From positions 1 to 36,007 of the forward strand of contig CBDDTI010000109.1 of NCBI GenBank assembly GCA_965233585.1: DNA of 36,007 bases, read 5' to 3'. Positions 4,701 to 35,530 of the stretch are shown piece after piece. The notes below the pieces were generated by a model. That model was not told where the DNA came from. It saw only the letters and a program-made list of their open reading frames with translations, and did no database searches. The DNA is from a bacterium (GTDB lineage Bacteria; SAR324; NAC60-12). A program made the position numbers and the translations under genes. The first letter of the stretch is position 1, and every line of letters starts with the position of its first letter.

Positions 4701-4860
4701 ACTGCTGAACGACCATGACTTCCGTTATGATCCAAAGGAACAAGCCTTTAAAGCTCCTGCTGACAGCCCTAAAGCTCAAAAATTCTTGAAGATTGCTAAA
4801 CAAGAAGAGCAAAAAATCAAAAAGCAAACAAAGGAAAAAGAAACCTCAATGCAGATGTAG
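1762..4860 (+). CDS. DnaG-type primase (CHC2 zinc finger + TOPRIM) fused to ArdC-like ssDNA-binding and zincin metallopeptidase domains
   Basis: CPIHQEKTASF...CFGCG zinc finger; FYNRLMFPI, GFGGR, KYLN and DADNAG primase motifs; Y.AYNQ..L and IKKGEKG ArdC-N motifs; YYSTVFHEAGH and YAKEELVAEL peptidase motifs. Confidence 0.9.
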   Translation: MVKVSDVKQAHSIESVVSQYAVIDKNGMACCPIHQEKTASFKVNADKGTAHCFGCGFHGDVISFVQAVEKLDFKEAIQKLGQGLTPSHQPTTSVKQQAAAPEVSQEQKQIIYAVNKRASDLFHASLNAGGKQYLYGRGVNDESIENFQLGYSSAHATETLKKEFRQEDLIQAGLFKQTDKGLRPVFYNRLMFPIQDEQGRCCGFGGRSLRENDKVKYLNTKETPIYKKSHLLYGESLCQNKEQVVITERYVDAIALHQKGFNAVALCGTALSDSQVARIERFEQVELAFDADNAGRQATDKALEKLPQAEAWILPQGQDAADFLSQQKEIGQSLDEQYNITGKYPSFTLPTKTLKNMYTDGFYMTESRRFKYRTSQAEQRDAERLLNAGMKGQTLIIKNIAKKYESHSRRHGSLNVRQRKSISRAGLHLHQMATAFLIHQKPMPKKITQQEQFNKLLDSLQKLEDKNWQQSWSPALSHFRSPSLSYRSNGSVYGAYNQFALSLERRIQPCSNVYIGFVEAKKHGWSIKKGEKGHQIIFTNRYVFDQEKRKRLQELNQKDSLSEQESKEKKDIEKEAVPFAKAQTVFSLDQTTAAPEQIKEKLGLEIKAPDLTNHSLMEQKRFAHAESILQRYFKEQGITFESTNSNRAFFKPSEKKIVVPKKEQFKELEEYYSTVFHEAGHSTGVALGREFGTHQKGKTYAKEELVAELTSLNLQQEYHFTNNETHTNSLKYLKGWLDHAKGKEDAPKVLFEAFKEAEKATDLIMGRNQDLQKGVEIEQDSQKEKLPSNLQLKIDEKGTAHLLGSDKSISLPQEKLPSDIQSKLITEAVQHGFTYNDKENLLTAPENETSQKFIKALEEKTLATHQELEITKEEKIPVQQEQENLASKVVVASVGFDQAQTQKFDQAVREKFDLKKEKPTETQKEDIVSQVIVKVSEEEKIRPIQEQPTGTKSTEQPSLLPPEQVVFKQKLASCKPEFVQLLNDHDFRYDPKEQAFKAPADSPKAQKFLKIAKQEEQKIKKQTKEKETSMQM

Positions 4861-9360: not shown

Positions 9361-9945
9361 CTAATCTAGCTTGGTGACTGAATTGTATTCGGTCACTTCC
9401 AGTCTGAGTGGATTGATGACATCCACATTTTCTATTCCTAATCTTATATCGTTTTCTGGGAATTGAGTCAAGAGTTTCCACTGTATCAGTGCGACTTTCT
9501 TTTCAATGTTTTCATCAGTCTGACTAATATACTCCATTTGAATTAAGTTGTCATCTAATTTTTCAGTTGAGATGATTTTAATTTGAACAATTTGATTGGA
9601 TTGTTTGAATCGTCTCCATTTAGAGAATAAGAAAGGATTTGTGAATGCTTTGAGATTTTCTAAATCCCTTCTTTCATGGAGTAAGATGAATGTTTTAAGA
9701 TATTTCTGAATGATGAAATCATCACCAGACGTCAATCCATCTTGAACGGATTGGATTTGTTGGATGTGTTGGTTTTCGTAGAGATAGACCTTTTGTGTAT
9801 TGATTTGTCTTGATAGATAGCGATTGGATATAGATTGATAGACAATTCCAGCTAAAGCAATCAGACAAGCAGAGATGAGAATCTTGGTAATGGCTTTTTG
9901 GACTTCCCAAGTTTCAAAAGAGAGTTGAAATCTGTGAATTTTCAT
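9361..9945 (-). CDS. VirB8-like protein (paralog 2)
   Basis: Single N-terminal TM, YLKTFILLHER helix, C-terminal INPLRLEVTEY resembling the VirB8 NPLGF.V..Y motif. Confidence 0.6.
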   Translation of the reverse strand: MKIHRFQLSFETWEVQKAITKILISACLIALAGIVYQSISNRYLSRQINTQKVYLYENQHIQQIQSVQDGLTSGDDFIIQKYLKTFILLHERRDLENLKAFTNPFLFSKWRRFKQSNQIVQIKIISTEKLDDNLIQMEYISQTDENIEKKVALIQWKLLTQFPENDIRLGIENVDVINPLRLEVTEYNSVTKLD

Positions 9946-14545: not shown

Positions 14546-14566
14546 TCCCTGTCTTCTGAAATATTC

Positions 14567-14659
14567 CTAAGGATTGGATTTTTTTCTTTTATTTGAGTAA
14601 TAAATCGCTGTTGAGATATAAAAGATACCTATTGCTGTCACTATTGCAACTACAATCAT
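14567..14659 (-). CDS. Small single-TM protein B, cassette copy 3 (30 aa)
   Basis: MIVVAIVTAIGIFYISTAIYYSNKRKKSNP; ATGA overlap with A. Confidence 0.65.
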   Translation of the reverse strand: MIVVAIVTAIGIFYISTAIYYSNKRKKSNP

Positions 14660-14835
14660 TTTCCCTCCTCTCCGTTAAAGTAAATAAATATAAGTGCTAC
14701 GTGAATGATAACACCAGCCGCTAGCAAGCACCATGCTTCTAGTGCATATGTTGTTTTTTCTGATGCAATGTAGTTGATTGCACCTCCTATCAGCCCTCCA
14801 CTGAGTCCAATCTCTACCAGTAATAAATTTTTCAT
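14656..14835 (-). CDS. Small membrane protein A, cassette copy 3 (59 aa)
   Basis: MKNLLLVEIGLSGGLIGGAINYIASEKTTYALEAWCLLAAGVIIHVALIFIYFNGEEGK; clear paralog of 21585-21773. Confidence 0.75.
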   Translation of the reverse strand: MKNLLLVEIGLSGGLIGGAINYIASEKTTYALEAWCLLAAGVIIHVALIFIYFNGEEGK

Positions 14836-14857
14836 ATCTACAACAATAGCTAAAAAC

Positions 14858-14935: not shown

Positions 14936-15334
14936 ATGCCAATCGCCATCAATACACTAGAATATGCTCGCTTACTGATAGATTCAGGAGTAGAACAAAA
15001 GCAAGCAGAAGCTCATGCTCTGACACTGGACAAAACGCTTAAAGAACATGTTCCCAGTAAAGAAGACGTTCAAAGCACCATAGAACAAGCTCAAACCCAA
15101 CTTAAAAGAAAAATCCAAACCGATATTGATAGCTCTATTGACACTGCAAAGATTGAAATCAATTCAACTATTGAAAAAGTCAAAAGTGAACTCAAACAAG
15201 ACATATCAGAGTTAAAAAGTGAACTCAAACAAGACATATCAGAGTTAAAATCCGACAATAAATTGATGAAATGGATGCTGGGGTTTCAGTTTGCAATGAT
15301 TTTAGCAATTTTTGTAAAACTTTTTGTTGGTTAG
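14936..15334 (+). CDS. DUF1640/CCDC90-like coiled-coil protein with C-terminal TM
   Basis: NTLEYARLL..GV..KQAEA start; 33-bp tandem repeat (KSELKQDISEL x2); KWMLG TM tail. Confidence 0.8.
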   Translation: MPIAINTLEYARLLIDSGVEQKQAEAHALTLDKTLKEHVPSKEDVQSTIEQAQTQLKRKIQTDIDSSIDTAKIEINSTIEKVKSELKQDISELKSELKQDISELKSDNKLMKWMLGFQFAMILAIFVKLFVG

Positions 15335-15576
15335 GCATCACACCTCGCAATCCGATTTCCAAACTGATTGTAAACATATTGTTCTTGTTGAGGTGTGTCA
15401 AGTTTGCTTTCTTGATACTGATTGATGCGAATCTTGACATATTCAGAGCAAGGACTGGTTGGAGGTTTGGTAGACGAACAACCAGAAGCCAGAGCCAAAC
15501 AAATCAACACTTTTTTGATGTGTTTTTGACTCTTTTTTGATGTATATCTGATGTCTTTTTGATATGTTTTCAACAT
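15331..15576 (-). CDS. VirB7-like small lipoprotein (start uncertain)
   Basis: Lipobox ASGC followed by TSPC, directly downstream of virB6; resembles the VirB7/ComB7 C...SPC pattern. Confidence 0.6.
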   Translation of the reverse strand: MLKTYQKDIRYTSKKSQKHIKKVLICLALASGCSSTKPPTSPCSEYVKIRINQYQESKLDTPQQEQYVYNQFGNRIARCDA

Positions 15577-15595
15577 AGATTTGATGTAGATTTGA

Positions 15596-17380
15596 TTAAA
15601 CAGAGATATTGGGTTCAATGTCTTTGTTGTCTTTCTTGGGTAAATTTGTTTTGACTTCAGGAGTTTTGGGGACAGGATTGCCCACTTCAAAATCTTTCTG
15701 GTCTTGTTGGAATGATGGCATGTTGTCGTAAAGATCAAGAGGCGGTCTCTCATCATTTTGAGCAAAGGAAGGCATGTTGTCATAAAGATCAAGGGGCGGT
15801 CTCTCATCATTTTGAGCAAAAGAAGGCATGTTGTCATAAAGATCAAGAGGAGGTAAATCCATCGGAGGCCTGTCTGATGCCTTCTCTTTTTGAAGTTGTT
15901 GATTGGTCTCTTTTTCATTGGTTTTCTGCTTGGATTGTTGAGCAAAGTTTTGAGAACGTTCATGCGTCTTTTGAGGAACAGACTCAGATTGAGCAGAAAA
16001 AGAAGGAAAAGCAGGCATGTTTGATGGAGCTTGTGGCGTCTGCTGTGATGCACTTTTTTTCTCTTTCATATCTGATGAAGTGTGAGAAGAGTGAGATGCT
16101 TCCTGTGTCTGCTGTTGCTGTGAAGCAGTAGAAGATTGAGAACTTTGAACAGTTTCAGAGGAGGCAAGAGTGCCTTCAATGATTCTATCTGCACCAGTCG
16201 CACCAGAACCTGATTGAGAAGATGACCCTTGAGTTTGGGGGTTGTCATCAGGCATCTTTTGTACAGAAAAAGGAGGCGGTTCAGGTTGTCCAAGATTCCT
16301 GTATTCTTCAACAGGAATATGAGGCAGGAACACAGGCGGTGCAGGGAGCTGAGGAACATCACCAGCACCAGATGACTCTCCCCCACCATCTGAACGCATT
16401 CCTCCTAGCATTTCTTTAGCACTGCTGATGCCTGCTTTTCCTGCACCATAAGCAGCCTTGCCAGCCCTCGCTGCACTGGCAGCAGCAGAAATGCCTTTGG
16501 CAGTCGCACCAATGATGTCTCTCCCAATCTGAAATGGATTGCTTCCCTTGCTAGAGACATTGCCCCGAGTCAAAGAATTAGCAATCTCTGCCACCTTAGA
16601 AAACGAAAAACAAGCAATCAATCCAATTAAAATAATAATCCCTGAAGGAATAGGAGAAGAGGAGTTTTCAAGACTTTGGTAGTCCAAAGCCAACCTAAAA
16701 ATCAACTCATTGACAAGATAAATAATACAGGTCGCAATGACTGGATACAACATAACAGTCAGCACAGCACGAAACCATTCAAAAAACACATTCCTACTCT
16801 CTGAAAAGGCAGAGAGCATAATGACCGCAGGAGAAAACAGCATATAAATCACTACATTAGACAAAAAAGCAAACTGCACCAGCCAATACTGTAAGTAAGT
16901 GATATACACCACCAAAGCAGCAAGATAGATGATGAACGCATCATAAGTTGGCAAGACTGACATCCAGCGGTCATCATTGCCTGCTTGTTCTATCAGATTG
17001 TCATAAATCATACTGTACAGCTGGCTCATGTTAGTCTCTGACGGAATTTTGAGACCCAAATTGTTGGCATTGGCAGAAATAATAAATTCAGCAATTTCTT
17101 TGGGGGTGTCAAACACCAGAGCAATCAAATACTCTTCATAAGACTCCATATTCGTTATGAAGTTAAAATTCATAGAAAGCAGGAGACCTGTGAACATGGT
17201 TTTGTAGCCGACTGTGCCGATTCCCGTTTTAAACGCAAAGACAAAGTAAAACAGAATCGCCAAGTGAAACCCTGCCGAAAAAATAGGCTGTGCTGCATGA
17301 CCAAACACCGAATACAAACCCAAAATCACCTCTATAAGAGTTGTCTCAAAAATCTCATAAACTTCATTTCCTCTAAACAT
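15596..17380 (-). CDS. virB6: VirB6/TrbL family protein with long low-complexity C-tail
   Basis: Multiple TMs; SPAVIMLSAFSESRNVFFEW TrbL/VirB6 motif; Ala/Gly-rich then Ser/Gln-rich tail. Confidence 0.85.
   Translation of the reverse strand: MFRGNEVYEIFETTLIEVILGLYSVFGHAAQPIFSAGFHLAILFYFVFAFKTGIGTVGYKTMFTGLLLSMNFNFITNMESYEEYLIALVFDTPKEIAEFIISANANNLGLKIPSETNMSQLYSMIYDNLIEQAGNDDRWMSVLPTYDAFIIYLAALVVYITYLQYWLVQFAFLSNVVIYMLFSPAVIMLSAFSESRNVFFEWFRAVLTVMLYPVIATCIIYLVNELIFRLALDYQSLENSSSPIPSGIIILIGLIACFSFSKVAEIANSLTRGNVSSKGSNPFQIGRDIIGATAKGISAAASAARAGKAAYGAGKAGISSAKEMLGGMRSDGGGESSGAGDVPQLPAPPVFLPHIPVEEYRNLGQPEPPPFSVQKMPDDNPQTQGSSSQSGSGATGADRIIEGTLASSETVQSSQSSTASQQQQTQEASHSSHTSSDMKEKKSASQQTPQAPSNMPAFPSFSAQSESVPQKTHERSQNFAQQSKQKTNEKETNQQLQKEKASDRPPMDLPPLDLYDNMPSFAQNDERPPLDLYDNMPSFAQNDERPPLDLYDNMPSFQQDQKDFEVGNPVPKTPEVKTNLPKKDNKDIEPNISV
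15709..15853 (-). repeat. 54-bp tandem repeat in the virB6 tail (about 2.7 copies)
   Basis: PPLDLYDNMPSFAQNDER unit; GGCATGTTGTC at 15717, 15771 and 15825. Confidence 0.9.
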
Positions 17381-17417
17381 TTTTTTTACTTTTGTGACAA
17401 AGATTAATCAAACAGTT

Positions 17418-17453
17418 ATCTACAACAGTAGAAATTAAGTCAGTCTATCAGAC
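17418..17453 (-). CRISPR. Solitary type V-A CRISPR repeat upstream of virB6
   Basis: ATCTACAACAGTAGAAATTAAGTCAGTCTATCAGAC is 33/36 identical to the array repeat; the AATTTCTACTGTTGTAGAT handle is intact. Confidence 0.92.
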
Positions 17454-17500
17454 TTGATTTTTGATAACGAAAGTAGTAATTTGATAGAAATTTAGAAACG

Positions 17501-17674
17501 ATGAAAAACATCTTGTTACAACAAATGAACGCCTGCCTTGCAGGCATTGGTGGCTGTCTGGCTTATTTTGCAAGTGAAAAAACAAAGTACATAGACCAAG
17601 CAGTTTATCTCACACTCGGATTTGCCATTGCTTATCTAGTTATATTTTTAATCTACACAAAAGAAGACTCATGA
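17501..17674 (+). CDS. Small membrane protein A, cassette copy 4 (57 aa)
   Basis: MKNILLQQMNACLAGIGGCLAYFASEKTKYIDQAVYLTLGFAIAYLVIFLIYTKEDS; shares the SEKTKY motif. Confidence 0.75.
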   Translation: MKNILLQQMNACLAGIGGCLAYFASEKTKYIDQAVYLTLGFAIAYLVIFLIYTKEDS

Positions 17675-17781
17675 CAGGAGAAACCGCCATCTACGTTGCT
17701 TCAGGCATCTTTTTTATGAGTGTTTTGATTACCATCATCAAAACACTCAAACAACAAAAACGAAACAAAACAACTACTTAA
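17671..17781 (+). CDS. Small single-TM protein B, cassette copy 4 (36 aa)
   Basis: MTGETAIYVASGIFFMSVLITIIKTLKQQKRNKTTT; ATGA overlap with A. Confidence 0.65.
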   Translation: MTGETAIYVASGIFFMSVLITIIKTLKQQKRNKTTT

Positions 17782-18850
17782 ACAAGGGACCTGAGTCATA
17801 TCTCTTGTAGTATTTGCTTTGTCTGACTTTTTCCAACAAAGCATCAAAGTTAGGAGTCGCAGACTGATGTTGGTCAGCACTTTTACCCTTTGCTCGCAAG
17901 TCACGGATTTGCTGTTCAGTCAGGGACAGCTTCGCCGCACGTTGCAGTTGCCGCACGTTTCGTTTCTGCTTAGCGTGCAAGTTGATGCCGTTCAAATAAA
18001 TCCCCTCCAGATTTTTGTCAATCCTGTGCAAGATTTTAAGCATTTGCCACTGAAGCATCATCTGTGTATCTAATGTTCCTTTTGTTCCCTCAGTACTCGG
18101 GTCATTTCCAGACACCCGATCAGCTAGAATCTCCCACTCTTTGTCTTTGAGTTTTTTATAGTCTTCGTCCAGATTTTTCATGTATCTTGAATTGATGCGA
18201 TTAAACTCACCTCGCTCCCTCTTGAGCTTGTCCATTGCTTCGTCATAGTAGGTCTTGACTAAAGCACACTTGCCTTTGACAAGCATGCCCAGCTGGTTAG
18301 TGCCTGCTTTGCGATGCACACGTTTTTTCAAGTAAAGCCCTCCCTCGGGATCCACCTCTAACGTGGTATAGGTAGATTCCCTAGAGTCTACGTCATTGTT
18401 AAATCCAAGCTCTTTTGCTATCAGCCCCTCCCCTATCTTTTCAGGATCCTTGCCGTAGAAGTAACGTGCATTCCACATGTTTTCAGTTTTCTGATAAGCA
18501 TCTACATCAGAAAAAACACACTCTGAGTCTTTTTTGAACTGCTCAATCGCAGCCTGAAACTCCCCCGGAGTTTTTTCTAGCTCATCCTTGAGTTGCTTAA
18601 TTTCCCCCATCACCCCAAAAACAGAGTTGTAGACTTTTGCCATTTCGCTCCTCATGTTCATAATCTCGTCCTGTACATTCATCATGGTCATCACTGCTCT
18701 TCTGCTAGTTTTCACTTGCTCCCTCAAATTCGCAACAGATTTAACCGCCTGCTCAAAATTTGAGGGATCGAAGACGTATTGAACACCCTGACCGTAAACT
18801 ACTGAAGGAATGACAGCGACCAAAAAAATATATTTAATTTTCATTAACAT
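17774..18850 (-). CDS. virB5: VirB5/TrbJ-like minor pilin
   Basis: Signal peptide then VFDPSNFEQAV, helical coiled coil, located upstream of virB6. Confidence 0.7.
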   Translation of the reverse strand: MLMKIKYIFLVAVIPSVVYGQGVQYVFDPSNFEQAVKSVANLREQVKTSRRAVMTMMNVQDEIMNMRSEMAKVYNSVFGVMGEIKQLKDELEKTPGEFQAAIEQFKKDSECVFSDVDAYQKTENMWNARYFYGKDPEKIGEGLIAKELGFNNDVDSRESTYTTLEVDPEGGLYLKKRVHRKAGTNQLGMLVKGKCALVKTYYDEAMDKLKRERGEFNRINSRYMKNLDEDYKKLKDKEWEILADRVSGNDPSTEGTKGTLDTQMMLQWQMLKILHRIDKNLEGIYLNGINLHAKQKRNVRQLQRAAKLSLTEQQIRDLRAKGKSADQHQSATPNFDALLEKVRQSKYYKRYDSGPLFK

Positions 18851-19214
18851 ACAAATCTCCTTTTGAATTTAATTGATTTGAACTTAATCCACCACTAGGA
18901 CTAACTTCTCTATAATTAGCAATTCCATCTGCGCCAACAGAACAGGCTTTTTCTTTTGCTTCTTTCATGGCTTCTTCTACTGGTTTATTACTACAACCAC
19001 AGAAAATCCCTGCTTGCAACTGCTGAAAAATAGTCACCTCCCCTATTTTTTTCTGTCCCTCTTGCAGAGGTTCACGCGAAATGGGAATGTCACAGGTTTT
19101 AGGCTTTGGTTGGTAGTTTTCATCAGTCATCTGGCTGTACAGAGCTGGCTGGGAACACCCCGCCATCAGGGCGGTTGCACAAGTGGCAGTGATGATTGAT
19201 TTGATTGTTTTCAT
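18834..19214 (-). CDS. Small lipoprotein next to virB5 (candidate entry/surface exclusion protein)
   Basis: Lipobox MAGC; KIGEVT...KEKACSVGADGI resembles the YbjQ/RcsF-like fold. The exclusion role is inferred only from position. Confidence 0.7.
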   Translation of the reverse strand: MKTIKSIITATCATALMAGCSQPALYSQMTDENYQPKPKTCDIPISREPLQEGQKKIGEVTIFQQLQAGIFCGCSNKPVEEAMKEAKEKACSVGADGIANYREVSPSGGLSSNQLNSKGDLYVNEN

Positions 19215-19269
19215 AAAATTCCCTTGTAAAAAAAATAATTAAAAAAAGTAAAGAGTTATTTCTTATTAT

Positions 19270-19802
19270 ATCTACAACAGTAGAAATTAAATAAGTCTAT
19301 TAGACCTCTTGCAGAGGTTCACGGGAGACGGATCTACAACAGTAGAAATTAAATAAGTCTATTAGACAGCAAAATATAGAGTAAATGTCTGGTATCTACA
19401 ACAGTAGAAATTAAATAAGTCTATTAGACCAGCTCTTTATTCTAAGATGACAGATATCTACAACAGTAGAAATTAAATAAGTCTATTAGACCATTCCACA
19501 TGTTCTCTGTTTTCTGAATCTACAACAGTAGAAATTAAATAAGTCTATTAGACGAGTTGCTTAATCTCTCCCATGACACATCTACAACAGTAGAAATTAA
19601 ATAAGTCTATTAGACAATTTTACGGCTAAGCCTCTTGGCTGATCTACAACAGTAGAAATTAAATAAGTCTATTAGACACATGTTTTCAGTTTTCTGATAC
19701 GCATATCTACAACAGTAGAAATTAAATAAGTCTATTAGACTGACATTCCTGTCTCTCGTGAACCCTATCTACAACAGTAGAAATTAAATAAGTCTATTAG
19801 AC
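19270..19802 (-). CRISPR. Type V-A (Cas12a-type) CRISPR array 1: 9 repeats, 8 spacers of 26-27 nt
   Basis: Identical 36-bp repeats, minus strand GTCTAATAGACTTATTTAATTTCTACTGTTGTAGAT, at 19270, 19332, 19394, 19456, 19518, 19580, 19642, 19705 and 19767. The 3' 19 nt is the canonical Cas12a handle. Confidence 0.98.
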
Positions 19803-19945
19803 CGATAACACGCTTGCAACCCGCACATCTTGGTCAAAAAACAAAATCAAAAGTGTAAATTTTGAGCAATTTCTGCCATTAAGACTCAGGTTTGCAATTT
19901 TTTAAGAAAGAAACGATCCATCAGCGGTATAGCTTCATCCTCATC
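19803..19945 (-). promoter_or_regulatory. CRISPR leader-containing segment, copy 1 (143 bp)
   Basis: Identical to 20294-20436; lies 5' of the array in the crRNA orientation. Confidence 0.8.
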
Positions 19946-20293
19946 ATCTACAACAGTAGAAGTTAAATAAGTCTATTAGACATTATCATCAGTAGTGGGT
20001 CTATACTTCGATCTACAACAGTAGAAATTAAATAAGTCTATTAGACCCAGTACCAGAAGATGACCCTTGAGATCTACAACAGTAGAAATTAAATAAGTCT
20101 ATTAGACGAAAGAAATGATCAAGCTATCCAGTGATCTACAACAGTAGAAATTAAATAAGTCTATTAGACATTAAAGCGTTTTATGTTAGATTCATATCTA
20201 CAACAGTAGAAATTAAATAAGTCTATTAGACGATTTTGATTTTCATAATTTTCCTTGATCTACAACAGTAGAAATTAAATAAGTCTATTAGAC
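19946..20293 (-). CRISPR. Type V-A CRISPR array 2: 6 repeats, 5 spacers of 25-29 nt
   Basis: Repeats at 19946 (one A>G change), 20011, 20072, 20134, 20196 and 20258. Confidence 0.97.
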
Positions 20294-20461
20294 CGATAAC
20301 ACGCTTGCAACCCGCACATCTTGGTCAAAAAACAAAATCAAAAGTGTAAATTTTGAGCAATTTCTGCCATTAAGACTCAGGTTTGCAATTTTTTAAGAAA
20401 GAAACGATCCATCAGCGGTATAGCTTCATCCTCATCATCTACAACAGTAGAAGTTAAATAA
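20294..20461 (-). promoter_or_regulatory. Leader copy 2 plus truncated 25-bp variant repeat (20437-20461)
   Basis: Exact duplicate of 19803-19970; ATCTACAACAGTAGAAGTTAAATAA, then similarity stops. Confidence 0.85.
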
Positions 20462-20500
20462 AAATTTTGTTTCATTTCATAGGCAATTTTTGGTCAGAGG

Positions 20501-21478
20501 TTAAAGGTTTTGAATTTGTTGTTTGGGTAGTCCAGTGGCAATGCTGATGGTATCAATGTCTAATCCTTGAGCCAGCATCTTTTTGGCAATTTCAATAGCT
20601 TTTTGTTGTTCTCCTTCTTGCCGTCCTTTTTCTATGCCTTTTTCCATTCCTTTTTCCATTCCTTGCTGGAGACCTTCTTCTTTGCCTTCTTGCCGTCCTT
20701 TTTCCATTCCTTTTTCCATTCCTTTCTCCATTCCTTTTTGAAGACCTTTTTGGAATCCCTGTTTAAGTTGGAGTTGTTCAGCACCTTTGATGATGGCAAC
20801 AAACTCCTGCCTTTTGTAGATGACTTCTAGTTCTTCAGGAGACAGCCCTGCTTGATTGACCAGATGTAAGGCTTCTTGAATGGTTGGATTAAAAGTTTGG
20901 GGAATCTCTTGTAAGCCTTCAGCGTGCTTGATGCAATAAATCCACTCTTCTTGCAACTCTTTGAGTTCATCTAAAGACTTTTGAAACTTGGGGAGTTCTA
21001 CAAAGATCAATTCAATGTCATCAGAATACGGGCTTAAGTTCTTCTTCTCTAACAATTTGAAAACATTGATGATTTGGTCATTGTTTTCAAACATGATGAA
21101 GTCAAGGATATTGAGAGCAATGACAGGATTCAGCAGATGAAACTCCTGCCCTTTCTCTAGTTGCATAGAGTAGTTTTTACAAGCATTGTAAAGGATTCTT
21201 TTCTCAAAACCTTCATGGTTGATGACCTGCATCTCAATCAGGACTTGCTGACCTGTGTCTAGTTTCGCTTTGACATCAACAAAGGTGATTTTCATACCTT
21301 CTAGCAAAGGCGGGTTGTAAGGGTCTTGAATGGTCAGGTCTTGAATTTTCTGCTGATGAGGAAACTCAATGAGCGAGTTAAGAAAGCTGATGAGTAGCTT
21401 CTTATTCTTCTCATCTCCAAACAGCATCTTAAAAGCATAGTCTGTTTTAAGGTCTAAAAACTTCATCATTTTTGGCAA
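20501..21478 (-). CDS. Rpn family PD-(D/E)XK nuclease (PDDEXK_2)
   Basis: DLKTDYAFKMLFG, VDVKA, IEMQ, FVELPKF; C-terminal (EKGM)n repeats and IAKKML..GL..DTISIATGL. Confidence 0.92.
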   Translation of the reverse strand: MPKMMKFLDLKTDYAFKMLFGDEKNKKLLISFLNSLIEFPHQQKIQDLTIQDPYNPPLLEGMKITFVDVKAKLDTGQQVLIEMQVINHEGFEKRILYNACKNYSMQLEKGQEFHLLNPVIALNILDFIMFENNDQIINVFKLLEKKNLSPYSDDIELIFVELPKFQKSLDELKELQEEWIYCIKHAEGLQEIPQTFNPTIQEALHLVNQAGLSPEELEVIYKRQEFVAIIKGAEQLQLKQGFQKGLQKGMEKGMEKGMEKGRQEGKEEGLQQGMEKGMEKGIEKGRQEGEQQKAIEIAKKMLAQGLDIDTISIATGLPKQQIQNL

Positions 21479-21489
21479 GGGTTAGAGGT

Positions 21490-21588
21490 TTATTTTTGCT
21501 CTCTACGGTTTAAAACTTGTTTGACAGCAATGTACGAGGCAACTACGCCAATCAGAGTCAACAAGATGGTTGTTAAAGTGATGATCAT
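21490..21588 (-). CDS. Small single-TM protein B, cassette copy 5 (32 aa)
   Basis: MIITLTTILLTLIGVVASYIAVKQVLNRREQK; ATGA overlap with A. Confidence 0.65.
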   Translation of the reverse strand: MIITLTTILLTLIGVVASYIAVKQVLNRREQK

Positions 21589-21773
21589 TTTTTGTCCTCA
21601 CAAATAACAATGATGAGATAAGCAGTGGCACAACTTGAATAAAGAATGAGACCACCACTGAAAATAACCCAGCTTTCAAAAAGATACTTTGTTTTTTCGC
21701 TGCCAATATAATTGACAGCAGAAGCAATAGCACCCCCAGCCATTCCAATTTGCAGAAGTAAAAAGTTTTTCAT
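21585..21773 (-). CDS. Small membrane protein A, cassette copy 5
   Basis: MKNFLLLQIGMAGGAIASAVNYIGSEKTKYLFESW...ICEDKK. Confidence 0.75.
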   Translation of the reverse strand: MKNFLLLQIGMAGGAIASAVNYIGSEKTKYLFESWVIFSGGLILYSSCATAYLIIVICEDKK

Positions 21774-21808
21774 AGGCAATTTTTGAAAAGATTGTAAAGG
21801 CTCATTAT

Positions 21809-22087
21809 TTAGTAAGGGATAGAATCTGTCAAGACTTTAGGAGCCAGAGAGAGTCGTTTAAAAGACATAAGAAACTCAAGCAAGATGTCCGAGAAGTTTG
21901 GGTCAACATACTTGGCAAGCAAGTGTCCAAGTCCTAAAGTCAGGGCATAAGCCAGCAATCCAACGAGTAACATGTCCATGTTATAGGGGATCAAATAAGC
22001 AGGAGCAGAAATAAGAAACCAAGAGCGAGGGACTCCAAAGATGAGTTGAGGACGCAACAGGGTTCGGTACACTTTGGAATAAATCAT
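21809..22087 (-). CDS. virB3: VirB3-like protein
   Basis: VYRTLLRPQLIFGVP motif, two TMs, DPNF; the start at 22087 overlaps the upstream stop (ATGA). Confidence 0.8.
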   Translation of the reverse strand: MIYSKVYRTLLRPQLIFGVPRSWFLISAPAYLIPYNMDMLLVGLLAYALTLGLGHLLAKYVDPNFSDILLEFLMSFKRLSLAPKVLTDSIPY

Positions 22088-22848: not shown

Positions 22849-25142
22849 ACCACTGCCCGTAAATACTCTTGCATGAGTTCTTGAGGAGAAAGGTTTTGTT
22901 TTTGGAGTGTTTCAATGGCTCTGACGTGAGTTTGAGAGGAATTGAAAACGTGTAGATATTGTTTTAAAAAAGCTAAGTTAACTTGGACAATGTCAGTAGA
23001 ACCGCCCGCTGTTTTGACCATGACGGCTCTGGTTTTAGGGTCTGTGTTTTTCAGCCAAGCCAGTTCGTCTTGATTGAGTCCAATGCCGTCTAAGTAGGCA
23101 TCAGGATTCAATCCCTCACGAGAAGGAAACAGAATAAACTTGGCAAAGTTAGCAAGATTTTGTTTTCCGATGGGGTGCAAATAGAGATGATCTAAAGACT
23201 GCACGGCTGCGACAAAAACACCATTGAGTTTTCGCAACTCCTGCAACATTCTGGCAGCGATTTTAGCAAAGACCTCAGATTCTAAATATCTGCGAAACTC
23301 ATCAACAAAAATGAGGCGAGGAGTGCCATCGCAAGACTTAAAGAACCGATGCGAGAGATAAGACGCAAACAGCCCCAGCTCCTCAGGTCTCTCTAAGAGA
23401 TGCGTGAAATCAAAACACAACCAGTCAGCCTCAAGAGGCACTGGCTGTCCAGAAAACAAACCTGACTTTGTGCCAGTAGAGCCGTATTGTTTCAGTTTCT
23501 CATACAACGGCTCTCCTTTTTGAGCAATGGTGTGAAGGAGCTGATCCACGGTGCGACTGGACAAGTCCCAATCCAGAATCTGCGATGCCCCTGCAATGAT
23601 TTTGAGCTTGTCTTGCTCACTTTGCACCTGTGCCATGTCACACAAGAAATCAATCAAGAATCCTGAATCCTCTTTGTCCAAATCAAACGGATTGAGCGAC
23701 AAGCCTCCTTGCTCAAAGTTTAAATACTTGCCACCAAGTAACAATGTAGAAACTTTGAGACCTTGCAGTTGGTCAAAAGCGAGCATCTTCATTCCTTTGT
23801 ACTTAGTGGCTTGTGCCAGTAAAAAACTAATCAAAGTGGTCTTACCTGACCCTGACGAGCCAACGACTAAAGTATGCCCTAAGGCACTTTGTGAAGAATC
23901 TTTGTGAAAGCAAAAGTTGTAGATAGACCCTGACGCACTAGAGAAGTGAGTCAACGGCTCACTTCCCCACGAACAAGACGTCAATCCCTCTTGAGAAGAA
24001 GGAAACGCGACAAAGCAACTGGCATTTTGTGATGTGATTTTTGTGTTTCGTTTGTTTGCCTTGCGTTTGGGTGGAAACTGCGAATAAAACAAAGATTCTT
24101 TGAGCAAGGTGTCATTACCCAGCAAATAGCCGTTCTGGTCTAAGAATTTTCTAATTTTCAAGCAATCCTGCTTGTTCTGACTTTCGGAGTGAGAAATGAC
24201 TTGAATCGTGAAGTAATGTTGAATGAGCTGAATCAAGTCAGCCTGCAAGTTGTTTTGAAGCTCATAGTATTCTTGCAACACAAAGTCTGCATACTTGACG
24301 AATTGATGAGTGAACCGAATCTTGTCAGCCACGAACGCTAAGGCTTTCTCTTTCTCCATGTAGTCAAAATGATGAGCCACCATCATCTCCACAGGTAGCT
24401 CAAGCAATCGGTCAAAGACAGGTTGTGCGGCATAGTCTCCATAGTTGCGAATCGTCATAAAAGACGACACCCGATTGGTGTTGAGATAGTGCAAATAAGG
24501 GTCAAAGCGAGACATCTTGATTGGCGTGTTGAGAATCCACTCATCCAAAAGTTGCTTGTTGAATTGCAAAGGGTTTTCAAAACACTCTGCATTGATGAGC
24601 GTGGCTAGAAACTGCAACAACACAGAACCTTTGAGCCTGATACAACCAAAGTCTTCAAATGCTGACAAGAAATAAGTTGCCACTTGCTCCAGACGTTCCA
24701 CATCGGATGCAATGTTCCGCAACTTCTTGATGGGATTGGTCTTGCTAGTGAGCATGAGATAATGCTGTGTTTCATAAACCGATTGAAACGACCCTGCCCA
24801 AGATTGAGCGATGGTTTGGACGTTGACATTGTTAAATTCACTGACTTTCAGATCACTCTGTTTCTGAAAGCGAGTGTGAAAGATAGAGATGACAAGGTCA
24901 TCATTATTAGCAAAGGTAGAGTTTCTGACTTGATACAACATCTGTTTTCTGCTTTCGGGAATGGCATTGTAATCCACCCCTGCAAGACTCATCACACAAG
25001 ACACAGTCTCATCTTTGTTCAAAATCAAGGCATCAGAGAACAAGCACAACATCGGCAGTTGCGGACTTTCTAACCCTTGCCAATTCTTGAAAGGATTCAA
25101 CCACTGACTTTCGGAAAACTCTTTTTTCAAAAACTCCAGCAT
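22845..25142 (-). CDS. virB4: VirB4 ATPase
   Basis: GHTLVVGSSGSGKTTL Walker A, IFVDEF Walker B, LRKLNG, 765 aa. Confidence 0.95.
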   Translation of the reverse strand: MLEFLKKEFSESQWLNPFKNWQGLESPQLPMLCLFSDALILNKDETVSCVMSLAGVDYNAIPESRKQMLYQVRNSTFANNDDLVISIFHTRFQKQSDLKVSEFNNVNVQTIAQSWAGSFQSVYETQHYLMLTSKTNPIKKLRNIASDVERLEQVATYFLSAFEDFGCIRLKGSVLLQFLATLINAECFENPLQFNKQLLDEWILNTPIKMSRFDPYLHYLNTNRVSSFMTIRNYGDYAAQPVFDRLLELPVEMMVAHHFDYMEKEKALAFVADKIRFTHQFVKYADFVLQEYYELQNNLQADLIQLIQHYFTIQVISHSESQNKQDCLKIRKFLDQNGYLLGNDTLLKESLFYSQFPPKRKANKRNTKITSQNASCFVAFPSSQEGLTSCSWGSEPLTHFSSASGSIYNFCFHKDSSQSALGHTLVVGSSGSGKTTLISFLLAQATKYKGMKMLAFDQLQGLKVSTLLLGGKYLNFEQGGLSLNPFDLDKEDSGFLIDFLCDMAQVQSEQDKLKIIAGASQILDWDLSSRTVDQLLHTIAQKGEPLYEKLKQYGSTGTKSGLFSGQPVPLEADWLCFDFTHLLERPEELGLFASYLSHRFFKSCDGTPRLIFVDEFRRYLESEVFAKIAARMLQELRKLNGVFVAAVQSLDHLYLHPIGKQNLANFAKFILFPSREGLNPDAYLDGIGLNQDELAWLKNTDPKTRAVMVKTAGGSTDIVQVNLAFLKQYLHVFNSSQTHVRAIETLQKQNLSPQELMQEYLRAVV

Positions 25143-30450: not shown

Positions 30451-33400
30451 ATGGAGAACACCATGAAAAAACTCACGTCCTGCCTCGTACTCATCTTTTA
30501 TGGATTCACGATGGTCGCAGAAACCTTACAAATCACACTGACCCAAGAGACTTTTTTGAAAGACAAGGAGCAAGCACTAGGAGATGTGTTGTTCCAGCAG
30601 AAGACGTTGTCGTTTAGTGGAACACTTGCTGTGGAGCAGTTGAACGGGACACAGCGGATTAAAATCAACTGGACAAAAGTCAATGGCAAGTCCGCTCCCA
30701 GTGAATTTTTGTCTCAATTTAAGACTCAAAGCCAAGAATTACCCAGAGGGTTCAAGTTCAATATCACAGGAGACTTTGAATCGCTCAATGATCCCAGTCT
30801 AGCAGTGGCAGTCGTAGATGAAGTGGAAGATTCAGGTGTTTCAGATTCATCTGTTCCCTCTGCTTCAAATTCTGCTCCAAAAGAAAGTCAGGGATTAACA
30901 GACTCTGCTGACAATCCTGATGCTGCAACTGCAACCTCTCCTGTTTCCATTCCAAATCAACAGGACATGACTCAAAATCAAGGCACTCAAAGCACTCCAG
31001 AAAGGTCTTTCCAAAAAGAAAAACAAGAAGAAAAGAATGATGATGATGAAAAAGATACTCCTGAACAACAAGAAGAAAAAAGAAATGATGCAACAGCAAT
31101 AGACACGTTGACAGAGACAACTCATGAAACTTGTGATGCTCAAATCACTGATGTTGCTTACATCACAAGGAAGCAAAAAGTGTTGTCCTATTCTTCAGGC
31201 AAGAAGGTCAGACAAGAGTGCCAGAATGACAGAACCTTTGCTTTGCTGGAAACTTTTCAAGGGTGCAGTCCCAGACATGACTTTCAGAACAAACGAACCA
31301 TCATGCAGAAGAAAAAATACTATGTCTCTGATGCAGGCTCACGAGTGGACATTGTCAACTGTACAGACTCCAAAATCATCTATCCTCATTTACAAGCTGT
31401 GTTTGACTGCACTCCTGTCTTTGATGCAGGTCAGCAGAGAGCCTACACCACCAAAAAAACCTACTATGTGGACGGCACTGGTTCTATTCAGACCATTACA
31501 GACTGTCGCATGGCTTCTGATGACTTTCAGACCTTCACTCAAAATGATTATCTCATAGAGTATTCTGATAAAGACCGAATAGACCATGCTAACAAAGTGG
31601 TCTATCGCAGAATGAGGCATTACATCAAAGTCGGAGACCAGAAGAAAGTGATTGGTTCGTGGCAAGATGACACTGCTAAACCGATGCCGATTGTCAGGGA
31701 ATATGACAAATGTAGTTACTTTCACAACAAACAAGCCCAGAAGTCATACAGGCAATATGCAGATGTCTATTACAAGAACGGACAAAGGCAAGTGGTCATT
31801 GCTTGTCAAAAAGACCCAAACAACTACTTTGCTCACATCTCTGATTCCAAATACTGTGACCCAATGGTCAACAATCGCAAAATGGTGTTGCGGAAGTCTG
31901 TCTATTTCTTTGACCAAAACGGACAGAGAAAGAACGTAGAAGATTGCAAAGTCTCTTCTGTGGAACACGATTTGACTCCTGCAGACATTCAAAAAGACTT
32001 CTCAGTTTGTAAGGCTCATTTGGATTTTGCTGCCAAACGTGCCTATCCCAAATATAGAGAATTTGTCCAAATCAAAGAAAGCAAGACCTACATCTCTAAC
32101 TGCCAAAAAGACAGCAACTTCTTTGACATGGTAGAGACTGATCAAGGATGTTCTCCTCGTTTTGATTTCAATCAAATGCAAGCCATCATCAAAAAAAGAC
32201 TCAAATACAATGATAGCCAGAAGGATGTCTTTGTCTCTGCTTGCTTGGAGACTTTTAGGCGGTATGTTCTCAAAAATGATGCTGCCATGTGCCGTGATCG
32301 GCTTTCTGAAGACAAGATGAGCATCATCAAGTTTCAAGCTGTGGTTTACACCGATGACAAAGGAGTTAAAAAAATTGCTCAAACTTGTCAATCTACTCAT
32401 CACTCCACTCCCATTGATCCCAAGAAATTGGTCAAAAAATACACCTGTGCAGACCTCTATGATGTCCCCAACATGAAGGTTTACAGACAATACAAAAACT
32501 ATTTAAATCTAGGAGGAAAAGAAGAAGAAATTAGCAGTTGTCTGGTAGATAAGAGCCAGTTTTATCCCATTGAGAGAGATTTTGCTGATTGTAAGAATGA
32601 TTACAACACCTTCACGATGAAAGCCATCTTAAAAAACAAACTGTTTTACAACACAGGCATTGAGAAAAGATACATCAGTGCTTGCTTGACCTCCAATATA
32701 CAATATGACCTCCAAAAGACCACTGGAACTTGTCCACCCAAGTTGTCCCTCAATAATTCTATGTTGGTCGCTCAACAAGAAATCTATTACATTGACCCCA
32801 ATACCAAGAAACGAGTGGTTGTTTTGCACTGTCACGAAACTGATCAACTCACAGCGATTCCAGATTCTATGATCATAAAAAAATATGCAGAATGTCCTGT
32901 CTTTTGGAATCCAAAAACTTTGAAAGTGGTCAAACAATACAGGAAGTATGTCAAGTTAGATGGACAGACTGAAACCAAGATTTCTGATTGTGTCTTTGAC
33001 CCTGCCAAAACCTACAACTCTCAATGGGATTACTCCAAATGCTCTGTGAGAGTGGACACAGTAGCAGGAAAAGTCAGAGAACTTGCCAAAGCCTATTATA
33101 ATGACGGGGCGCAGGATCATTATGTCTCTGATTGTGTAGAGACTGGAACGTTGTATGCGATCAAAGACAATCACAACATTTGCCAACCCATCAAACTGGC
33201 TAATCCGACCAAAGTCATCTTGCAGAAAAGACTTTATTACAATGACCGTTTAGGAATTGTCACGTGGCTTGGACAATGTGAGCCTTCTTTGACAGTAGAT
33301 TCAGGAAAAGAAAAGTTATGTGCATCGTCTCCTATCAACTACAATGACAATGTCAACCAAGCGTTTTTAAACACGAAATGGATCTATCAGCACGGTGCCA

Positions 33401-35493: not shown

Positions 35494-35530
35494 AAATGCA
35501 CTATTCTAACCCTTAACACGAGATTTGACA

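Follow-up and report, generated by a model that had tools for sequence, protein, structure and literature searches.

A cas-less type V-A CRISPR array on a conjugative plasmid carries spacers that nearly match the genes beside it

Mini-CRISPR arrays without cas genes have been described for the portogloboviruses SPV1 and SPV2 (Medvedeva et al. 2019, PMC6858448) and, according to the account given there, for phages (Faure et al. 2019). As that work describes them, the virus arrays have repeats matching those of the host and a host-like leader, their spacers match close relatives of the carrier whilst the carrier's own loci are mutated, sparing self, and their targets lie near the array. Closeness of targets to cas-less arrays is already on record for archaeal viruses and phages, noted by the authors and left unexplained (PMC6858448). 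Plasmid-borne CRISPR loci and orphan arrays are treated as players in inter-plasmid conflict by Pinilla-Redondo et al. (PMC7038947, PMC9071438); the latter account has plasmid spacers mostly targeting plasmids and orphan plasmid arrays possibly using host Cas proteins in trans, and type IV-A3 work cited in PMC11656645 reports spacer acquisition in trans.

The stretch of DNA analysed here (the window, 36,007 nt) is a circular conjugative plasmid, about 36 kb in size, with a Cas12a-type (type V-A) CRISPR array (19270-20472, minus strand; 13 spacers in two leader-plus-array units) situated between backbone transfer genes (Table 1). The plasmid is without a recognisable Cas protein: Cas families were matched by none of the 30 window ORFs in Pfam and by none of 14 in NCBIfam. 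The host chromosome encodes cas12a, cas4, cas1 and cas2. Its Cas12a scores above the cut-off for TIGR04330 and contains the Pfam domains RuvC_1 (4e-86), REC1, NUC and PI; Cas1 and Cas4 were identified in the same profile search as these domains, and Cas2 in a separate one. The plasmid repeat is identical to that of the chromosome's three arrays, where 242 spacers stand behind it (identical repeat in 238 of 242 units). Plasmid and host arrays agree in spacer length (25-29 nt), and the plasmid leader shares 89.8% identity over 127 nt with the leaders of two chromosomal arrays.

The locus resembles the virus mini-arrays in lacking cas genes, in its host-matching repeats and host-like leader, in spacers that would match near kin of the carrier, in the apparent sparing of self, and in the nearness of its targets. 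It differs from those described in PMC6858448 in that the carrier is a conjugative plasmid and not a virus, in being type V-A where the SPV viruses use Sulfolobales type I/III systems, in having 13 spacers in two units as opposed to one or two, and in that targeting is read from near-self matches, relatives being absent from the collections searched. With the plasmid-borne loci of PMC7038947 and PMC9071438 it shares a conjugative carrier, reliance on host machinery in trans, and spacers directed against plasmids and conjugative-transfer genes. Here, however, cas genes are absent and the nuclease would be Cas12a of the host, which cuts DNA, in place of a type IV complex encoded by the plasmid, and the targets belong to the carrier's own gene family beside the array, a pattern that we did not meet in the portions consulted of those two accounts.

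Fifteen full 36-nt repeats lie between 19270 and 20293, of which 14 are exact and one, the leader-distal repeat of sub-array A (19946-19981), carries a single substitution. In the assembled sequence, 19767-19970 and 20258-20461 are an exact 204-nt duplication, and the truncated repeat at its far edge marks the end of a partial tandem duplication. In sub-array B, S08 is leader-proximal and S01 oldest.

Table 1. Features of the array, of the neighbouring genes, and of the plasmid's own copies of spacer targets (self copies).
Feature	Position	Strand	Remarks
VirB6/TrbL-like gene	15596..17380	-	holds S10 self copy
S10 self copy	16209-16233		5 mismatches
Solitary CRISPR repeat	17418..17453	-	same orientation as array; 3 mismatches
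VirB5-like gene, 358 aa	17774..18850	-	relatives' Pfam PF07996 and family profile against TrwJ
S04 self copy	18469-18494		VirB5-like gene; 2 mismatches
S07 self copy	18475-18501		VirB5-like gene; 1 mismatch
S05 self copy	18590-18615		VirB5-like gene; 4 mismatches
Lipoprotein gene, 126 aa	18834..19214	-	lipobox LMAGC, from translation
S01 self copy	19059-19084		lipoprotein gene; 3 mismatches
S08 self copy	19067-19092		lipoprotein gene, opposite strand; 6 mismatches
S03 self copy	19122-19147		lipoprotein gene, opposite strand; 7 mismatches
Sub-array B	19270..19802	-	9 repeats, 8 spacers (S01-S08)
Leader copy B	19803..19945	-	143 nt, identical to leader copy A
Sub-array A	19946..20293	-	6 repeats, 5 spacers (S09-S13)
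Leader copy A	20294..20436	-	part of exact 204-nt duplication
Truncated repeat	20437..20461	-	last 25 nt of repeat, crRNA handle included
Rpn-family (PD-(D/E)XK) recombination-promoting nuclease or putative transposase gene	20501..21478	-	adjoins array
Rest of chromosome-like module	21489..21883	-	81-aa ORF; 89% identical to C746:594696-595091

For six of the 13 spacers, none of 300 shuffles did as well as the near-match found elsewhere in the window. A seventh, S03, is borderline at the DNA level (15 of 300 shuffles equally good), and its peptide is that of the lipoprotein site, with a score reached by 0 of 200 shuffles. The seven traceable spacers have their self near-matches in the lipoprotein, VirB5-like or VirB6 gene: S01, S03, S04, S05, S07 and S08 of sub-array B match adjacent genes, whilst in sub-array A only S10 has a local near-match, within the low-complexity C-terminal tail of the VirB6/TrbL-like protein. 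For S02, S06, S09, S11, S12 and S13, matches in the window were no better than shuffles for DNA (67-298 of 300 as good) or for peptides (54-126 of 200), and no match was found elsewhere in the 12-Mb assembly. Family searches gave no match for the lipoprotein; the VirB5 assignment rests on PF07996, matched by three of 16 relatives, and on the match of the family profile to TrwJ (7o3v_A, E 9e-7).

For the lipoprotein and VirB5-like genes, the six spacers together show 23 mismatches, 17 of them in third codon positions, and the encoded residue is unchanged in 16 of the 19 codons affected, which argues that the seven spacers were copied from slightly different, protein-conserving sibling alleles of the lipoprotein, VirB5-like and VirB6 genes. 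One site is represented by three distinct alleles (S01, S08 and the self copy), a second is shared by the overlapping S04 and S07, and the sampled sibling sites differ from self at 28 of 183 nt (approximately 15%). Every self copy has early mismatches (guide positions 1-13), no TTV PAM, or both, and would be spared by the mismatches, the missing PAM, or both. For the S04 self copy, which has a CTTA PAM and just two mismatches (positions 10 and 13), we assume protection.

Use of this cas-less type V-A array against sibling plasmids, as a weapon of inter-plasmid exclusion, is the most likely explanation, to which we give roughly an even chance. The array would be transcribed on the minus strand and the transcript processed by host Cas12a; the guides would then direct cutting of sibling plasmids entering the same cell, the rival mostly being lost, whilst host Cas1-Cas2-Cas4 would add new spacers at both leaders. 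Close relatives of the plasmid were not found in PLSDB, among 60 related genomes, in JGI metagenome contigs or GTDB genome contigs, in IMG/VR, in four public sequencing runs containing the plasmid, or in protein sets of 5.8 billion and 1.84 billion sequences. In the two protein sets the best matches of the VirB5-like protein were at 53% and, for a fragment, 72% identity; VirB4 reached 64%, possibly on the same distant contig as the VirB5-like relative. As the collections searched held neither a sibling plasmid nor an exact protospacer, we infer the targets, their PAMs and any sibling array.

The seven targets span 16209-19147, without exception to the low-coordinate side of the array, at distances of 136, 191, 199, 668, 782, 789 and 3049 bp. 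An earlier, sequence-only reading had placed all confident matches within about 3.1 kb on one side, which holds, and seven of them within about 0.8 kb, where the count is six (136-789 bp), the seventh lying at 3.05 kb. Its statement that virB4, virD4 and the remaining backbone have no match to the plasmid array was borne out by shuffle-tested matching across the window. With overlapping targets merged into five sites for the calculation, five random sites would all lie no more than 3049 bp to either side of the array with a probability of 1.5e-4. A control set of 218 unique host-chromosome spacers gave four near-matches to the plasmid (2, 3, 3 and 5 mismatches), at 3545, 4497, 9576 and 16087 bp from the array; these involve the topoisomerase gene, ORF194, an intergenic stretch and virB4, and none of the four falls within the 15.6-19.2 kb target region. 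Plasmid-array targets lie closer than host-array targets (one-sided Mann-Whitney p 0.003, seven versus four; p 0.008 for five merged sites versus four). Since the host-array near-matches are scattered over the backbone, the clustering is specific to the plasmid's own array. Adjacency as such is one instance here, with p of about 0.05 if the targets form one cluster: treated as one event, the 0.7-kb cluster has a chance of 0.046 of landing within 801 bp of the array.

Under the exclusion reading, the closeness would result from two filters acting together. According to PMC9419969, RecBCD activity biases type V-A adaptation, the PAM is TTTV and no priming was seen; hotspots of protospacers have been described around active arrays of P. 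furiosus and E. coli (PMC5737086). Since type V-A adaptation is fed by DNA breaks, and active arrays are known as such hotspots, a co-resident sibling with an array at the same site would be sampled mainly beside that array. At the second filter, retention, a spacer would be kept only if the plasmid's own target copy had diverged and lay so near the array that recombination with siblings could not join the array to a sensitive allele. The likeness to the hotspots lies in spacers being taken preferentially from DNA flanking the acquiring array (PMC5737086, which for E. coli cites type I-E work). Those hotspots concern the cell's own DNA and self-targeting spacers, whereas the donor here would be a presumed co-resident, array-bearing sibling; the idea needs siblings with an active array at the same site, and no hotspot of this kind is shown for type V-A in the work cited. 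Phage mini-arrays, as described in PMC6858448, target adjacent genes without having host-like leaders, which rules out a hotspot as the general cause of closeness.

Unlikely, in our estimate, is that the clustering arose from interference-driven acquisition and that its adjacency to the array is chance: a first spacer would by chance have fallen in the lipoprotein/VirB5 region, later cuts yielding DNA ends and more spacers. The bias of type V-A adaptation to RecBCD activity at breaks agrees with this, as does the heaping of targets on two overlapping sites and their neighbours within 0.7 kb; counted as one event, adjacency has p of about 0.05 to 0.18 and speaks weakly against chance. Set against it, priming in type V-A was not seen in the one published test, as given in PMC9419969. 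S10, 3 kb away, adds a second site to that side of the array, the solitary repeat too falls inside the target region, and the like closeness in virus mini-arrays (PMC6858448) makes coincidence less likely.

Three consecutive mating-pair-formation genes contain all seven traceable targets, which raises the question of whether target identity was selected, with array position irrelevant: hits in pilus-tip, surface or exclusion genes (lipoprotein, VirB5, VirB6) might be especially effective, or siblings might differ by these genes. Conjugative-transfer genes are enriched among targets of CRISPR spacers of all types according to PMC7038947, and relatives of the VirB5-like protein are variable, at 72% and 53% identity where VirB4 has 64%. 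Yet the spacers match protein-conserved patches, as the synonymous codons above indicate, and not specificity-determining differences, and the plasmid array has no matches in virB4, virB8, virB9, virB10, virB11, virD4 or the relaxase gene. Because a Cas12a cut at any position destroys the entire replicon, what the target gene does should make little difference. We regard selection of this kind as quite unlikely.

The solitary repeat lies 37 nt upstream of the VirB6 start codon. Its three mismatches are all in the 5′ part, leaving the 19-nt handle and hairpin intact; the 3′ hairpin is preserved in the consensus, variant and solitary repeats alike. The RNA anti-CRISPRs of PMC10651486 are a parallel for this element only, sharing a single host-like repeat of intact structure on a mobile element; the work reports that solitary repeats on phages and plasmids inhibit CRISPR, three type V-A examples having been tested. 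The plasmid's repeats, above all the solitary one, could by analogy serve mainly as an RNA anti-CRISPR or decoy that sequesters or misloads host Cas12a, shielding a plasmid that the host's own arrays nearly match (three host spacers have two or three mismatches to the backbone). In contrast to the elements of PMC10651486, the solitary repeat here sits inside a transfer operon and co-occurs with a full array, and a simple promoter scan found no promoter-like site adjoining it. Leaders and regular 25-29-nt sibling-derived spacers would be superfluous for a decoy, and the clustering is left unexplained; such counter-defence is highly improbable.

Free-standing homing endonucleases of T-even phages adjoin the gene that they cut in relatives, their own allele being resistant, and repair co-converts the neighbourhood. 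The plasmid shares with them a cutting function beside a gene that would be cut in relatives and resistant by polymorphism in the carrier; it differs in that an RNA guide array would give the specificity and the nuclease would be borrowed from the host, in that no conversion event is observed, and in that nearly half of the spacers point elsewhere. By analogy, as the sequence-only reading proposed, array-guided host Cas12a might cut a rival's lipoprotein/VirB5 allele, and repair from this plasmid might copy the resistant alleles and, through co-conversion, the linked array into the rival's backbone, perhaps with the whole block from 17418 to approximately 21883. The anatomy fits: the six nearest targets (136-789 bp from the array edge) are within the ordinary range of resection and co-conversion, the module with the array interrupts a run of backbone transfer genes expected in siblings too, its immediate neighbour is an Rpn-family recombination nuclease gene, and the solitary repeat and the array's last repeat (19270), as direct repeats, bracket the two most-targeted genes (lipoprotein and VirB5-like). 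A full-text literature search found no paper proposing natural homing of arrays and no earlier work arguing against it. Nevertheless, the targets are on one side exclusively, 6 of 13 spacers lack a local target, the target genes are not distinct from the backbone in GC or GC3, and the collections searched held no relatives for breakpoint or tree comparison. Divergence of approximately 15% between sibling alleles at the sampled sites lowers RecA-dependent repair and would hamper conversion, and a multicopy plasmid cut by Cas12a is mostly lost. The closeness recurs, with its cause unexplained, in unrelated virus systems (PMC6858448); this and the array hotspots (PMC5737086) also offer two non-drive explanations with published support. 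Overall, we consider homing very unlikely.

The Rpn-family gene has 87% DNA identity to a chromosomal copy, and the remainder of the module overlaps the 3′ end of a VirB3-like ORF. The chromosomal copy is likewise flanked by a degenerate repeat and a leader fragment.

The window is a single contig within a 12-Mb, 747-contig genome, and its ends share a 13-nt overlap (1–13 = 35995–36007). Once the overlap is removed, a topoisomerase gene, with its Toprim domain on one side of the junction and its main body on the other, continues in frame, which shows the contig to be a closed circle of ~35,994 bp. Pfam searches identified conjugation genes (VirB3-, VirB4-, VirB6-, VirB8-, VirB9-, VirB10- and VirB11-like, a VirD4 coupling protein and a relaxase) together with maintenance genes (ParA, a PIN toxin pair and a primase–ArdC fusion), a combination that marks the circle as a conjugative plasmid. 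The fusion is one 1032-aa ORF in which a DnaG-type primase is joined to an ArdC N-terminal domain and to a zincin-like metallopeptidase domain. Neither Pfam nor NCBIfam gave a match for the 1280-aa ORF located between the VirB10-like and VirB11-like genes. Cas families were matched by none of the 30 ORFs searched against Pfam and none of the 14 searched against NCBIfam.

The plasmid array, which lies on the operon's strand, contains 15 repeats of 36 nt (14 identical and one with a single change) and is organised as two tandem units with a leader of 143 nt apiece. Unit A holds five spacers (S09–S13) and unit B eight (S01–S08), and in the assembled sequence an exact 204-nt duplication (19767–19970 = 20258–20461) joins them. 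RNA folding predicts a 5-bp stem with a 4-nt loop at the 3′ end of the repeat (minus strand) in its consensus, variant and solitary versions. The 13 spacers are 25–29 nt long, matching the lengths in the host arrays. An identical repeat is present in 238 of the 242 units of three arrays on the host chromosome (contig C745), two of which have leaders to which the plasmid leader is 89.8% identical over 127 nt. One of the chromosomal arrays adjoins a complete set of cas12a, cas4, cas1 and cas2, surrounded by housekeeping genes; the 1544-aa cas12a product scores over the TIGR04330 cut-off and has Pfam RuvC_1, REC1, NUC and PI matches. The plasmid thus has the ~36-nt repeat with a Cas12a handle hairpin, the regular unique spacers and the upstream leader of a type V-A array, whereas the cas12a/cas4/cas1/cas2 genes that would normally adjoin it are on the chromosome (C745). 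Judged by these features, it is an orphan type V-A array, which would work and gain spacers only through host proteins in trans. Host Cas in trans has been suggested for orphan plasmid arrays in PMC9071438, where plasmid spacers are described as mostly plasmid-directed. As the leaders are apparently intact (~90% identical to the host's), spacer addition is presumably possible. The plasmid and chromosomal arrays have no spacer in common, the closest pair differing at seven positions, which makes it unlikely that part of this host's array was simply captured. A promoter scan, crude and uninformative for this purpose, gave no promoter-like site on the minus strand of either leader.

Each spacer was compared with the rest of the plasmid and with 300 shuffles, and S03 and the six spacers without a self copy also at the peptide level, with 200 shuffles. 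A near-copy on the plasmid (hereafter self copy) better than 300/300 shuffles was found for six of the 13 spacers. For S03, 15 of 300 shuffles were equally good as DNA; the spacer encodes ALYSKMTD, compared with ALYSQMTD in the lipoprotein, and this peptide score was reached by 0/200 shuffles. The other six spacers gave nothing above chance in plasmid DNA, plasmid proteins, the two proteins of a distant relative or the rest of the assembly. The seven self copies all lie to the same side of the array, at distances of 136, 191, 199, 668, 782, 789 and 3049 bp. The sequence-only reading had placed all the matches within ~3.1 kb on one side of the array, with seven inside 0.8 kb; its description holds throughout, save that six lie inside 0.8 kb (136–789 bp) and the seventh is the outlying one. 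With overlapping sites merged, the probability of all five target sites lying so near the array is 1.5e-4, and when the 0.7-kb cluster is taken as one event, adjacency has p ~0.05. Chance adjacency combined with interference-driven clustering is an explanation that we regard as rather unlikely.

Positions of spacer near-matches and other features of the plasmid
Feature	Position	Strand	Mismatches	Remarks
Self copy of S01	19059–19084		3	
Self copy of S03	19122–19147	other strand	7	borderline at DNA level
Self copy of S04	18469–18494		2	
Self copy of S05	18590–18615		4	
Self copy of S07	18475–18501		1	
Self copy of S08	19067–19092	other strand	6	
Self copy of S10	16209–16233		5	
Host-spacer near-match	539–565		3	topoisomerase gene
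Host-spacer near-match	9681–9707		3	ORF194
Host-spacer near-match	14761–14786		5	intergenic
Host-spacer near-match	24005–24030		2	virB4; both synonymous
Array repeats	19270–20293	-		last repeat 19270–19305
Truncated repeat	20437–20461			25 nt
Solitary repeat	17418–17453	-		
Lipoprotein gene	18834–19214	-		
VirB5-like gene	17774–18850	-		
VirB6/TrbL-like gene	15596–17380	-		
54-nt tandem repeat	15717–15854			VirB6 C-terminal tail
Two-gene cassette	14564–14835	-		
Two-gene cassette	17501–17781	+		
Repeat-end-like piece	14836–14849			14 nt
Rpn and 81-aa ORF genes	20501–21883			
Primase–ArdC ORF	1762–4860	+		
1280-aa ORF	30451–34293	+		
Topoisomerase, Toprim domain	35525–36007			
Topoisomerase, main body	2–1480			

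The host arrays (C745, 87.8–90.7 kb and 391.5–404.7 kb), with 242 spacers, 218 of them unique, served as a control. Four unique spacers near-match the plasmid, and shuffled host-spacer sets under the same criteria gave 0 matches in 5/5 trials. These near-matches lie 3.5–16 kb from the plasmid array, with none within the target region, and their distances differ from those of the plasmid array's targets (Mann–Whitney p 0.003; 0.008 with merged sites). Their scatter over the backbone indicates that the host met relatives of the plasmid and sampled the backbone broadly. Clustering near the array is specific to the plasmid's own array, the traceable spacers of which are all directed at its neighbourhood. 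Selection for the lipoprotein, VirB5-like and VirB6 genes as targets would fit with the report that transfer genes are favoured CRISPR targets (PMC7038947); we consider such selection an unlikely cause of the clustering. The resident plasmid is mismatched to the host near-match spacers, or lacks a PAM, in every case. Three of the four, numbers 94, 106 and 109 of 128, are close together in one host array, pointing to a single early encounter with a relative. The genome would record a three-way conflict: the host keeps a memory of the plasmid family, none of these host spacers fits the resident plasmid exactly, and the plasmid, on the reading favoured below, may turn the host nuclease on its own kin. 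Separately, spacer 27 of C745 array 3 resembles a dispersed chromosomal repeat (>100 places at 2–5 mismatches), and the host spacers 20, 49 and 50 have perfect chromosomal matches without a TTTV PAM (TAAG, AAGG and AGAA).

The names lipoprotein and virB5, assigned from sequence alone, are supported by closer analysis. The 126-aa product of the first gene has, in translation, a signal peptide ending in LMAGC, which identifies it as a lipoprotein; it matches no family in searches that included Pfam and NCBIfam. The 358-aa VirB5-like protein has no direct Pfam match, and three of its 16 aligned relatives match PF07996 (best E 1.4e-10); in the PDB, the profile of the family hits the R388 VirB5 protein TrwJ (7o3v_A, E 9e-7), and the gene lies between the lipoprotein and VirB6/TrbL genes, such that both similarity and position place it in the VirB5 family. 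Its structure model (pLDDT 36) was unusable. The third target gene is VirB6/TrbL-like, with the S10 site in a low-complexity tail. GC and GC3 values per gene revealed no foreign signature in the target genes. The tandem repeat in the VirB6 C-terminal tail (2.6 copies) encodes repeats of PPLDLYDNMPSFAQNDER. A small two-gene cassette without Pfam match is present in two copies, each encoding a hydrophobic protein of ~57 aa, similar to judge by eye from the translations, and a second protein of ~30–36 aa. The VirB5-like gene and VirB6 flank one copy, which is on the opposite strand, and the second copy adjoins a 14-nt piece resembling the end of the repeat.

The differences between spacers and self copies inform on the origin of the spacers. 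The six spacers matching the lipoprotein and VirB5-like genes differ from their self copies by 23 mismatches, of which 17 fall at third codon positions, five at first and one at second. The change is synonymous in 16 of the 19 codons affected; the other three give amino-acid substitutions, I to V (in S01 as well as S08) and Q to K. Since random spacer decay would ignore the reading frame of the target, this codon pattern indicates that the spacers are, as far as can be read from sequence, copies of working homologous genes, that is, of alleles from related (sibling) plasmids. With S10 included, the alleles sampled are of three adjacent genes. One site is represented by three alleles (S01, S08 and the self copy), and a second is overlapped by S04 and S07; the presence of multiple alleles at one site implies that at least two non-self variants were sampled. 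With respect to the plasmid's own copies, S01, S03, S05, S07 and S08 have a mismatch within the first eight guide positions, and the self copies of S07, S08 and S10 lack a TTV PAM. The least protected is the S04 self copy, whose PAM is CTTA and whose two mismatches are at positions 10 and 13. Every self copy is probably spared by early mismatches, PAM loss, or both.

Searches for siblings used region DNA, proteins and alignments as queries; exact protospacers may exist in the collections. In PLSDB, neither megablast of 15000–21500 nor tblastn with the VirB5-like protein gave a match, and a DNA search of 60 related genomes found no sibling, only a weak match (E 7e-4) in one of them (G008). No sibling was found in JGI metagenome contigs (VirB4 and two-sequence alignment queries), GTDB genome contigs (VirB4 query) or IMG/VR; the alignment query against GTDB contigs gave only four distant N-terminal matches (26–31% identity), one of them in a gene that follows a VirB4 gene. 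Protein sets contained only distant relatives of the VirB5-like protein (one at 53% identity and a 152-aa fragment at 72%) and, for VirB4, a 64% relative, whose contig is equal in length to that of the 53% relative, followed by one at 38%. Four public runs from one study carry the plasmid, and 15374–19265 is identical in them with no other letters, although storage as contigs hides rare variants. Loose ends in these runs were considered as sibling alleles; one of them, at 18317, has no likeness to the window when compared by eye, and the loose ends are accordingly not taken for such alleles.

It is known that cas-less arrays on mobile elements attack close relatives. The mini-arrays of the archaeal viruses SPV1 and SPV2 have leaders but no cas genes and are directed at the other virus, the carrier's own loci being mutated; according to the same paper (PMC6858448), spacers of phage mini-arrays target neighbouring genes in close relatives. 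Array-adjacent targeting by cas-less arrays is already in print and was left unexplained there. As in mini-arrays, host-matching repeats and a leader occur on the plasmid together with a lack of cas genes. Mini-arrays, however, have one or two spacers, whereas the plasmid array has 13 in two units; and where mini-array spacers match relatives, own loci being mutated, the self loci of the plasmid differ by 1–7 mostly synonymous changes and/or PAM loss, with no exact-match relative found in the collections searched. The plasmid array is a well-marked plasmid example of this known kind of element, one which displays the unexplained adjacency with particular clarity. The case is unusually clean, in that seven spacers trace to three adjacent genes with a synonymous signature and a scattered host-array control, and it makes testable whether closeness arises from spacer gain, from a need for retention in a recombining family, or from drive.

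We favour a model in which the array is expressed and its guides would direct host Cas12a to cut sibling plasmids entering the cell, the main outcome probably being loss of the rival plasmid. The closeness of the targets would have two parts: break-driven sampling of spacers next to arrays in co-resident siblings, and retention of spacers only where the self copy has diverged and is tightly linked to the array. Protospacer hotspots around active arrays are reported for P. furiosus and, as cited there, E. coli (PMC5737086); type V-A adaptation is reported to use a TTTV PAM and to follow RecBCD activity, with no priming in one test (PMC9419969). For the whole picture, sibling-plasmid exclusion with break-driven sampling and a retention filter, we judge the chances to be about even. 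An acquisition bias towards the leading region was also considered; neither the establishment-type ArdC-primase and topoisomerase genes (35.5–4.9 kb, over the junction) nor the relaxase gene (25.9–27.7 kb) is near the targets; oriT was not located.

The sequence-only reading had instead proposed a possible homing or gene-drive module. In an extended form of that idea, the block from 17418 to ~21883 (solitary repeat, resistant VirB5-like and lipoprotein alleles, two-leader array and Rpn nuclease gene, in that order) would be a natural CRISPR-guided homing cassette: host Cas12a would cut sensitive sibling alleles, a few hundred bases from the array insertion point, and repair from the plasmid would transfer its array, along with its resistant alleles, to the rival's backbone. 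The anatomy is compatible with this, as homing elements have an adjacent target and a resistant allele of their own, and the plasmid array has both (136–3049 bp; mismatches/PAMs). Were it true, the array would spread through the plasmid family as synthetic gene drives do, and the frequent own-neighbourhood targeting by cas-less virus and plasmid arrays would be explained, which would be remarkable. Full-text literature searches for CRISPR arrays that naturally home or undergo gene conversion yielded no papers beyond those on synthetic gene drives or mini-arrays. We hold homing to be distinctly unlikely, and a gene drive is not demonstrated on present evidence.

The solitary repeat has the array's orientation and lies 37 nt upstream of the VirB6 start codon; its three changes are all outside the handle, leaving the Cas12a handle intact. 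It forms direct repeats with the array's last repeat, bracketing 1.8 kb with the lipoprotein and VirB5-like genes, within which six of the seven traceable targets lie. It could be what remains of an array that collapsed, it could serve as an RNA anti-CRISPR, or it could supply a guide from the virB6 5′ region. Solitary repeats are able to function as RNA anti-CRISPRs, type V-A systems being among those inhibited (PMC10651486), and such repeats are usually just downstream of a promoter. The plasmid's repeat is solitary and structurally intact, and a crude promoter scan gave no promoter-like site beside it. A decoy role of the plasmid repeats, with which an intact handle would agree, seems to us highly improbable. 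A regulatory cr-like RNA acting on the cas12a promoter, from either the solitary repeat or the sequences after the terminal repeats, was rejected (best partial matches with 5–6 mismatches in 16 nt, no seed).

Between the array and ~21883 are an Rpn-family PD-(D/E)XK nuclease gene and an 81-aa ORF, and the module overlaps the end of the VirB3-like ORF. This stretch is 87–89% identical to C746:594696–596157, on a second contig of the host chromosome, where a degenerate repeat and a leader fragment lie between the two genes, in a different order from that on the plasmid. The array–Rpn module has the appearance of DNA of chromosomal origin inserted into the transfer operon. Further Rpn copies are located 1.8 kb from a chromosomal array (C745:389164–389769), and within this genome Rpn genes appear to move together with pieces of CRISPR leader or repeat.
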